IMG/VR virus record: IMGVR_UViG_2778261151_000016
Coordinates: 1-16,033 of that record
Direction: 5' to 3' (one strand)
Source: a virus
Taxonomy: Duplodnaviria; Heunggongvirae; Uroviricota; Caudoviricetes
DNA length: 16,033 bases
Positions 9,001 to 12,000 of this stretch are shown here, piece after piece. Made by a program: the position numbers. The stretch's first letter is position 1, and each line of letters opens with the position of its first letter.

Positions 9001-12000
9001 AGATGTTAGCCAGCAACATTATCGCTGGTTTCACACGGCTCTTAACAAAAGAGCCTGCCAGTGAAGCTATTCGCCAGCAGGCTCAGGTAATTATTAATCA
9101 GGCAGAAACTATTTCACGTGAGCGAAAAGAATTTCGTAAAGAGGTTTCTGAGCTTCAAGCATCTCAACCGCAATCCACTATTTAAGGTGATATATGGAAG
9201 AACAAGCAAACAAGATTCTCGTAGAACTACTGCAAAAAGCCAGCAATGGAATAGACGCGGCTGTTTCATTCAGCCAGGCACAGATTCCTGATGTTGTTCA
9301 TCAGTTGCTGCTATGGAATATGGTTGACAGTCTGATTAAAACATTAATAGCCATTCTAACAATCCCTCTGGTTTTCTGGTTTATGAAGAAGCAGTGCCAA
9401 AGAGTTGAGACAGGTAAAATCGGTGATGAAGGATATTCATGGGAGAAGGGAAATCCCAAATACAGGCCGACAATGGTTTGGGATAGCAAAGGTGATATTA
9501 ATCTTCTTATCATGCCACTGGTTGGAGTTTTGACTCTGTGGGGAATTTTTATTATTGGTGTAGTAACCAATATGACTTGGTTAAAAATTTGGCTGGCCCC
9601 AAAGCTTTACCTTATCGAATATGCAGCATCATTGGTTAAGTAATTTCAGGCCGCATAGTTGGTCTTTATTTTTGGCACAAGCAACAGAATAAACACTGCA
9701 CTGTGTATTCATTCCAACGAGTGAATACACGGAGCAATTTAAAGCGTAAATAAGGAGCACACCATGCAATATGCCATTGCAGGGTGGCCTGTTGCTGGCT
9801 GCCCTTCCGAATCTTTACTTGAACGAATCACCCGTAAATTACGTGACGGATGGAAACGACTCATCGACGTACTTAATCAGCCAGGAGTTCCCAAAAATGG
9901 ATAAAACACTTATGGCTATCCAGACTAAATTCACTATCGCCACTTCTATTGGCGATGAAAAGATGTTTCGTGAAGCCGTCGACGCTTATAAAAAATGGAT
10001 ATTAATACTGAAACTGAGATCAAGCAAAAGCATTCACTAACCCCCTTTCCTGTTTTCCTAATCAGCCTGGCATTTCGCGGGCGATATTTTCACAGCCATT
10101 TTCAGGAGTTCAGCCATGAACGCTTATTACATTCAGGATCGTCTTGAGGCTCAGAGCTGGGCGCGTCACTACCAGCAGCTCGCCCGTGAAGAGAAAGAGG
10201 CAGAACTGGCAGACGACATGGAAAAAGGCCTGCCCCAGCACCTGTTTGAATCGCTATGCATCGATCATTTGCAACGCCACGGGGCCAGCAAAAAAGCCAT
10301 TACCCGTGCGTTTGATGACGATGTTGAGTTTCAGGAGCGCATGGCAGAACACATCCGGTACATGGTTGAAACCATTGCTCACCACCAGGTTGATATTGAT
10401 TCAGAGGTATAAAACGGATGAGTACAGCACTCGCAACGCTGGCTGGGAAGCTGGCTGAACGTGTCGGCATGGATTCTGTCGACCCACAAGAACTGATCAC
10501 CACTCTTCGCCAGACGGCATTTAAAGGTGATGCCAGCGATGCGCAGTTCATCGCATTGTTGATCGTCGCCAACCAGTACGGCCTTAATCCGTGGACGAAA
10601 GAAATTTACGCCTTCCCTGATAAGCAGAACGGCATCGTTCCGGTGGTGGGCGTTGATGGCTGGTCCCGCATCATCAATGAAAACCAGCAGTTTGATGGTA
10701 TGGACTTTGAGCAGGACAATGAATCCTGCACATGCCGGATTTACCGCAAGGACCGCAATCATCCGATCTGCGTTACCGAGTGGATGGATGAATGCCGCCG
10801 CGAACCATTCAAAACCCGCGAAGGCAGAGAAATCACCGGACCGTGGCAGTCGCATCCCAAACGGATGTTACGTCATAAAGCCATGATTCAGTGTGCCCGT
10901 CTCGCCTTCGGATTTGCTGGTATCTATGACAAGGATGAAGCCGAGCGTATTGTCGAAAATACCGCATACACTGCAGAACGTCAGCCGGAACGCGACATCA
11001 CTCCGGTTAACGATGAAACCATGCAGGAGATTAACACTCTGCTGCTCGCCCTGGATAAAACATGGGATGACGACTTATTGCCGCTCTGTTCCCAGATATT
11101 TCGCCGCGACATTCGCGCATCGTCAGAACTGACACAGGCCGAAGCAGTGAAAGCTCTTGGATTCCTGAAACAAAAAGCCACTGAACAGAAGGTGGCAGCA
11201 TGACACCGGACATTATCCTGCAGCGTACCGGGATCGACGTGAGAGCTATCGAGCAGGGAGATGATGCGTGACACAAATTACGGCTCGGCGTCATCACCGC
11301 TTCAGAAGTTCACAACGTGATAGCAAAGCCCCGCTCAGGAAAGAAGTGGCCTGACATGAAAATGTCCTACTTCCACACCCTGCTGGCTGAGGTTTGCACC
11401 GGTGTGGCTCCGGAAGTTAATGCTAAGGCGCTGGCATGGGGAAAACAGTACGAGAACGACGCCAGAACTCTGTTTGAATTCACTTCCGGCGTGAATGTTA
11501 CTGAATCCCCGATCATCTATCGCGACGAAAGTATGCGCACCGCCTGCTCTCCCGATGGTTTATGCAGTGACGGCAATGGCCTTGAGCTGAAATGCCCGTT
11601 TACCTCCCGGGATTTCATGAAGTTCCGGCTCGGTGGTTTCGAGGCCATAAAGTCGGCTTACATGGCCCAGGTGCAGTACAGCATGTGGGCGACGCGAAAA
11701 GATGCCTGGTACTTTGCCAACTATGACCCGCGCATGAAGCGTGAAGGCCTGCATTATGTCGTGGTTGAGCGGGATGAAAGGTACATGGCGAATTTTGACG
11801 AGATGGTGCCGGAGTTCATCGAAAAAATGGACGAGGCACTGGCTGAAATTGGTTTTGTATTTGGGGAGCAATGGCGATGAAGCATCCTCGCGATAATATC
11901 CGGGTAGGTGCGATCACTTTCATCTACTCCGTTACAAAGCGAGGCTGGGTATTTCCCGGCCTTTCTGTTATCAGAAATCCACTGAAAGCACAGCGGCTGG

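Follow-up and report, generated by a model that had tools for sequence, protein, structure and literature searches.

The exo gene of the lambdoid prophage described here has very probably undergone a recent, neutral loss of function, in which a TGG→TGA change truncates the exonuclease (Exo) after 23 residues within a prophage that is being dismantled by IS elements. The loss of exo is ordinary gene decay. It was found in a stretch of 16,033 nucleotides of viral DNA (IMG/VR record IMGVR_UViG_2778261151_000016), the whole of which is referred to below as the window. Recent pseudogenisation in a decaying prophage had been among the readings offered by an earlier note on this DNA, and it is borne out by the comparisons: the allele and an intact one are separated by 2 nt, the carriers form one near-clonal lineage, and IS elements are located in and around the prophage.

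An opal codon in an otherwise complete exo frame

The exo pseudogene occupies positions 11200..11880 on the + strand and corresponds to a lambda-type 5'-3' exonuclease (Red alpha, YqaJ/PF09588 family). Translation of this interval gives 226 codons followed by the terminal stop, and the sole internal stop is the opal codon TGA at codon 24 (11269..11271, + strand), generated by a G→A change at 11271 from TGG, the nearest intact allele having Trp24 here just as lambda Exo does. The ATG at 11200 overlaps the TGA of bet at 11201..11203 (ATGA), which places the start of exo about where the earlier note had put it. A second derived change, V164A, is found at 11689..11691 on the same strand (GTG→GCG; T→C at 11690) and affects a residue that does not vary among 61 distinct Exo proteins from intact alleles.

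With Trp restored at codon 24, the translated Exo aligns end to end, over residues 1-226, with the lambda exonuclease chains 6M9K, 1AVQ, and 3SM4 (E ~4e-154), all of which have W at position 24, and the Trp given in the earlier note for this lambda position was thus correct. The window Exo shares 218 of its 226 residues (96%) with lambda Exo, W24* being one of the eight differences. PF09588 is on record for the 174-aa remnant of exo, and PHROG 149 (exonuclease) was also matched. The initial description of codon 24 as TGA where lambda has Trp, in a frame that otherwise follows lambda Exo to its end, agrees with both the translation and the alignment to the lambda chains, since the 225 other codons are open and the alignment extends over all 226 residues. 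Homology to the lambda exonuclease family (YqaJ-like viral recombinases of the PD-(D/E)XK type) is therefore full-length and the frame is interrupted by one internal opal codon; judged from its sequence, exo is a pseudogene of this family by descent.

Expected properties of the truncated and restart products

In lambda Exo, the 5' phosphate is bound through hydrogen bonds by Trp24 and Arg28, in a pocket that is needed for Exo activity (PMC7496540). When the pocket was mutagenised, nuclease activity was lost completely or almost completely, and recombination in vivo followed the activity in vitro (reviewed in PMC7496540). The mutationally validated residues encoded past the stop are Arg28, Arg45, Lys49, Lys76, Leu78, Glu85, Asp119, Glu129, Lys131, and Arg137, so that the catalytic residues Glu85, Asp119, Glu129, and Lys131 are still encoded downstream of it. 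The 23-residue Exo product itself would be useless.

Two in-frame restarts were considered. The first ORF past the stop begins with GTG at Val40 (11317..11880, + strand; 187 aa) behind a weak Shine-Dalgarno-like cagaag, and an exact look-up of this 187-aa product retrieved no called gene on record. The second begins with ATG at Met53 (11356..11880, + strand; 174 aa), is the form annotated by gene callers, and is preceded by gaagtgg and then 6 nt, a Shine-Dalgarno sequence somewhat better than that at Val40. Both products lack Trp24 and Arg28 and with them the 5'-phosphate pocket, and the Met53 product additionally lacks the channel residues Arg45 and Lys49. The restart at GTG 11317 proposed earlier is thus sustained as far as the 187-aa in-frame ORF is concerned and falls short in function, because its product is without Trp24 and Arg28, mutation of which abolishes activity wholly or nearly so. 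In a search of 10000..12300 for an internal promoter that could serve the remnant ORF, the sole promoter-like match was located inside bet (10926..10953), fewer matches than in shuffled sequences.

Ribosomes coupled from bet would be expected to terminate at codon 24, and a restart at Val40 or Met53 would yield a protein without the 5'-phosphate pocket. Since the restart products lack this pocket, the Red system of the prophage would be unable to resect double-stranded ends. Annealing of single-stranded DNA by Bet and inhibition of RecBCD by GamS could persist, in both cases only when pL is derepressed. For annotation, exo should be labelled as a pseudogene (W24*) and not as a 174-aa "exonuclease", and the Red system of the prophage should be treated as Exo-deficient.

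Occurrence and age of the TGA24 allele

At least 11 separate public assemblies carry the 681-nt allele that combines TGA24 with V164A, as was checked on their DNA. An identical 681-nt allele is carried by GCA_900448845.1, GCA_012221365.1 (CP050862), GCA_001907495.1, GCA_001907465.1, GCA_902503545.1, GCA_039058495.1, GCA_902502925.1, ERR217063 (Logan), GCA_014155055.1, and GCA_045004775.1, and GCA_018228805.1 has the same TGA24 and GCG164 allele with one further change, E223K. Across NCBI, ENA, and Logan, 49 contigs and 69 index blocks have on record exactly the 174-aa remnant that begins at Met53. The carrier strains vary in their IS content and are therefore not copies of one assembly.

Comparison with exo alleles of related prophages, which the earlier note had advised, identified the intact TGG allele of E. 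coli FDAARGOS_944 as the nearest one. It is two bases apart from the window allele (W24* and V164A; 99.7% DNA identity), and comparison with phage 434 and other alleles shows each of the two changes to be derived. The carriers are 99.9-100% identical to the window across ~15 kb around exo, and this near-total identity indicates that the clone is young. CP050862 is described as ipaH-positive and ST270, and thus as an enteroinvasive-type E. coli (PMC13340235), and the TGA24 allele is a clean lineage marker of the IS-rich E. coli clone that includes this strain.

Recurrence of the stop was searched for in several collections. No exo allele 100% identical to that of the window was found among 5,426 complete RefSeq E. 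coli genomes. In the 5,426 complete E. coli genomes, 41-nt megablast queries for TGA24 with the window flank or the lambda/434 flank gave no match; these queries were centred on the mutated base, so any 28-mer seed contains that base, and the corresponding TGG control query matched 1,404 places in 1,218 E. coli genomes. A degenerate TGA24 pattern occurred 0 times in the IMG/VR viral contigs, where the TGG control occurred at least 120 times, and 0 times in the GTDB species representatives. All of these counts refer to the sequence backgrounds that the queries or the pattern match. TGA24 thus appears to be one young, lineage-private event that is neither recurrent nor programmed.

The derived exo changes of the TGA lineage all alter the protein (3/3; W24*, V164A, and, in one assembly, E223K), and 37% of the segregating changes in 91 intact exo alleles are non-synonymous. 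This non-synonymous excess, drawn from three changes (P ~0.05), fits relaxed constraint weakly and is suggestive only.

Neighbouring genes of the Red module

The genes of the pL operon are arranged on the + strand in the order cIII-kil-gam-bet-exo, which is that of the annotated phage 434 and of the lambda Red system. bet, encoding the Red beta annealase, is located at 10418..11203 (+ strand; 261 aa) with its stop overlapping the start of exo, and gam, in the GamS form, at 10116..10412 (+ strand; 98 aa). Neither gene contains an internal stop, in line with the earlier statement that the 261-aa Bet and GamS are full length. Compared with phage 434, an extra T is present upstream of gam at ~10096..10102 (CAGCCATTTTCAGG versus CAGCTATTTCAGG); it breaks the long 138-aa Gam frame, and consequently the 98-aa GamS is the only Gam form that can be made from the window.

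Downstream, the ATG of the DUF1317 gene (lambda orf60a-like; 11871..12035, + strand) overlaps the end of exo, and translation of this gene may drop if it is coupled to that of exo. A 41-aa ORF at 12032..12157 matches only the first 25 positions of PF05869, the profile for phage Dam methyltransferases. This ORF, which RefSeq marks as incomplete in FDAARGOS_944, is what a deletion has left of the gene, and it is fused to the front of ead/Ea22.

An IS21-family element of ~2.1 kb cuts bet at 11006..11010 in GCA_047308285.1, GCA_902503545.1, and GCA_039058495.1 (loci L146, L013, and L014). With this bet::IS21 insertion, the Red module has been disrupted a second time in the same lineage, independently of the stop in exo.

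Alternative explanations

That the TGA is a sequencing or assembly artefact and the true base is G, as the earlier note had allowed, has a probability close to nil. In its favour, the nearest allele is one base away at codon 24; at least 11 assemblies nevertheless agree on the TGA, and they come from different projects and pipelines (NCBI long-read, short-read, and Logan ERR217063) and differ in IS content, by which the proposed error is refuted. Chance is not at issue either, given that one base sets the stop apart from the codon of an intact allele with 99.7% identity. It is also highly improbable that the host has selectively retained (domesticated) a Bet and GamS module without Exo because the module is useful to it. 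In favour of this, an annealase alone suffices for oligonucleotide recombination (PMC11611040), and most carriers have both Bet and GamS intact. The Bet protein is moreover identical across prophages whose genes have 13 synonymous differences, pointing to strong purifying selection historically. However, the carriers are ~100% identical over 15 kb, which has left no time for selection to show, and where carriers have hardly diverged, bet and gam are expected to be intact even without selection; their intactness would reflect too little time to decay. In addition, three assemblies from this lineage have bet broken by IS21, and bet and gam belong to a pL operon with an intact cI-type repressor gene upstream (5724..6461), so they should be silent in a lysogen. 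Retention of bet and gam by selection, raised in the earlier note as an alternative to decay, is accordingly not supported.

A leaky stop, in which UGA-C is sometimes read by Trp-tRNA and wild-type Exo is made at a few percent with a high Bet:Exo ratio, is highly improbable as well. The base following TGA24 is C, a weak termination context, and UGA followed by C was reportedly found by Poole, Brown and Tate in 1995 to be the weakest termination context in E. coli. The near-cognate tRNA would insert Trp, the native residue at position 24. In K-12, competition of Trp-tRNA with RF2 gives UGA readthrough of ~2% at 37 C, compared with 4% at 25 C (PMC10570021), and Exo is required only to match the number of DNA ends, whereas Bet must coat single-stranded DNA (PMC11611040). 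Against these points, TGA24 is found in one young clone only (0 versus ~1,400 and at least 120 TGG control sites), and the second change affects V164, an otherwise invariant residue, which is suggestive of a relaxed constraint. Natural E. coli isolates generally carry the efficient type of RF2. High readthrough is due to the weak RF2 of K-12, and the products were absent with the RF2 of E. coli B (PMC5373646). The sequence downstream of TGA24 is the same as in the TGG alleles; as a candidate stimulatory structure, the fold of 11266..11335 was no better than those of shuffles (z = +0.65), a search for an element such as SECIS 3' of the stop gave no Rfam match, and no tRNA gene that could act as a suppressor is located within the window. 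A programmed recoding event or selenocysteine insertion was rejected, as the stop is not conserved across the homologues searched, there is no Rfam match, and no stable structure is formed. It is extremely improbable that the opal codon works as a leaky attenuator that supplies trace authentic Exo beside full amounts of Bet and GamS and thereby shifts the Red stoichiometry. If it did, some double-strand-end recombination could persist on induction, and a leaky stop would be a small natural case of readthrough restoring the wild-type residue; nothing found favours it.

Decay of the surrounding prophage

Recent, neutral loss of exo is thus the preferred explanation, and the prophage illustrates how a Red module may decay in IS-rich genomes, with a point nonsense mutation in exo first and an IS21 insertion in bet next. 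The window begins with the end of an IS66-family element (1..882, - strand; tnpA 156..797) that abuts the primase-helicase gene of the prophage replication module, and the position of this IS66 end is ninB in other carriers. In GCA_014155055.1 (L148), IS66 is present with 55 extra bases at the junction, a difference which implies either a further strain as the source of the window or a small deletion at the junction in the window. Other IS elements of the relatives are an IS110 in the HTH_36 replication gene, an IS4 after DUF1317, an IS3 between xis and int, and an IS1 near kil. In several carriers, the genes past the lysis cassette have been replaced by IS3 and a tail-fibre remnant, with loss of the late genes. 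The terminase and portal genes are still present after the lysis genes in GCA_902502925.1 (L152), and the stop therefore probably predates the worst of the decay and arose in a more complete prophage.

Several further features of the window and its relatives were recorded. The HTH_36 replication gene (4086..4817, - strand) shows a 45-nt in-frame length difference at ~4508..4526 between otherwise identical prophages, giving 243 versus 258 aa. The 19-nt overlap of BLAST pieces at this site is suggestive of a direct repeat, which may represent origin iterons, and Tandem Repeats Finder reported no repeat there in 4000..5000. The same spot is the insertion site of IS110/ISEc20 in FDAARGOS_944 and CP050862. 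The gene at 949..3855 (- strand) encodes a 968-aa Toprim primase-helicase fusion with a weak LAGLIDADG_3 Pfam match on record and PHROG matches to P-loop ATPase (terminase-like), and an inserted homing-endonuclease-like segment is possible in it. Four genes of unknown function (6499..6840, 7030..7563, 8685..9185, and 9194..9643), with their families listed as DUF3024, PHROG 2602, no family, and PHROG 3054, are situated in the cI-N and N-cIII intervals, positions that in other lambdoid phages hold lysogen-expressed exclusion or accessory genes.

Beyond the int end of the window, positions 15617..16460 of locus L005 comprise 83 nt in common with the prophage end of FDAARGOS_944, followed by a yacH-like fragment. 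This flank adjoins lpd-aceF-aceE, and the flank in the close relative is ybhC, the classical lambda site. The L005 flank suggests that the prophage occupies a secondary attachment site or that the chromosome has been rearranged at this end of it.

Comparison with known systems

The window gene shares with lambda Exo (Red alpha; 1AVQ, 3SM4, and 6M9K) its 226 codons, the gam-bet-exo order, and the ATGA overlap of bet and exo. It differs in its stop at codon 24, owing to which no full-length protein is encoded, and in the V164A change at an otherwise invariant site. In classical lambda red (exo) nonsense mutants, as in the window, a point nonsense mutation removes Exo and spares Bet and Gam. Such phages are viable in rec+ hosts, and the loss is tolerated. 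In contrast to these laboratory-made mutants, the window allele is natural and fixed in a prophage lineage.

Cryptic lambdoid recombination genes such as recET of Rac likewise represent an exonuclease-annealase pair decaying in a repressed or defective prophage, although the window pair is of the lambda Red type (Exo/Bet/Gam) instead of RecE/RecT and no sbcA-like activation is evident. Prophage decay in Shigella and enteroinvasive E. coli is similar in that genes are degraded by point mutations together with IS insertions. Recombineering with double-stranded DNA requires both an exonuclease and an annealase, and recombineering with oligonucleotides requires only the annealase (PMC11611040). 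The Bet that remains in the window, together with GamS, would accordingly resemble Bet-only oligonucleotide recombineering, in which Bet suffices for recombination of single-stranded oligonucleotides (PMC11611040). That application is an engineered one, whereas the module of the window is natural.
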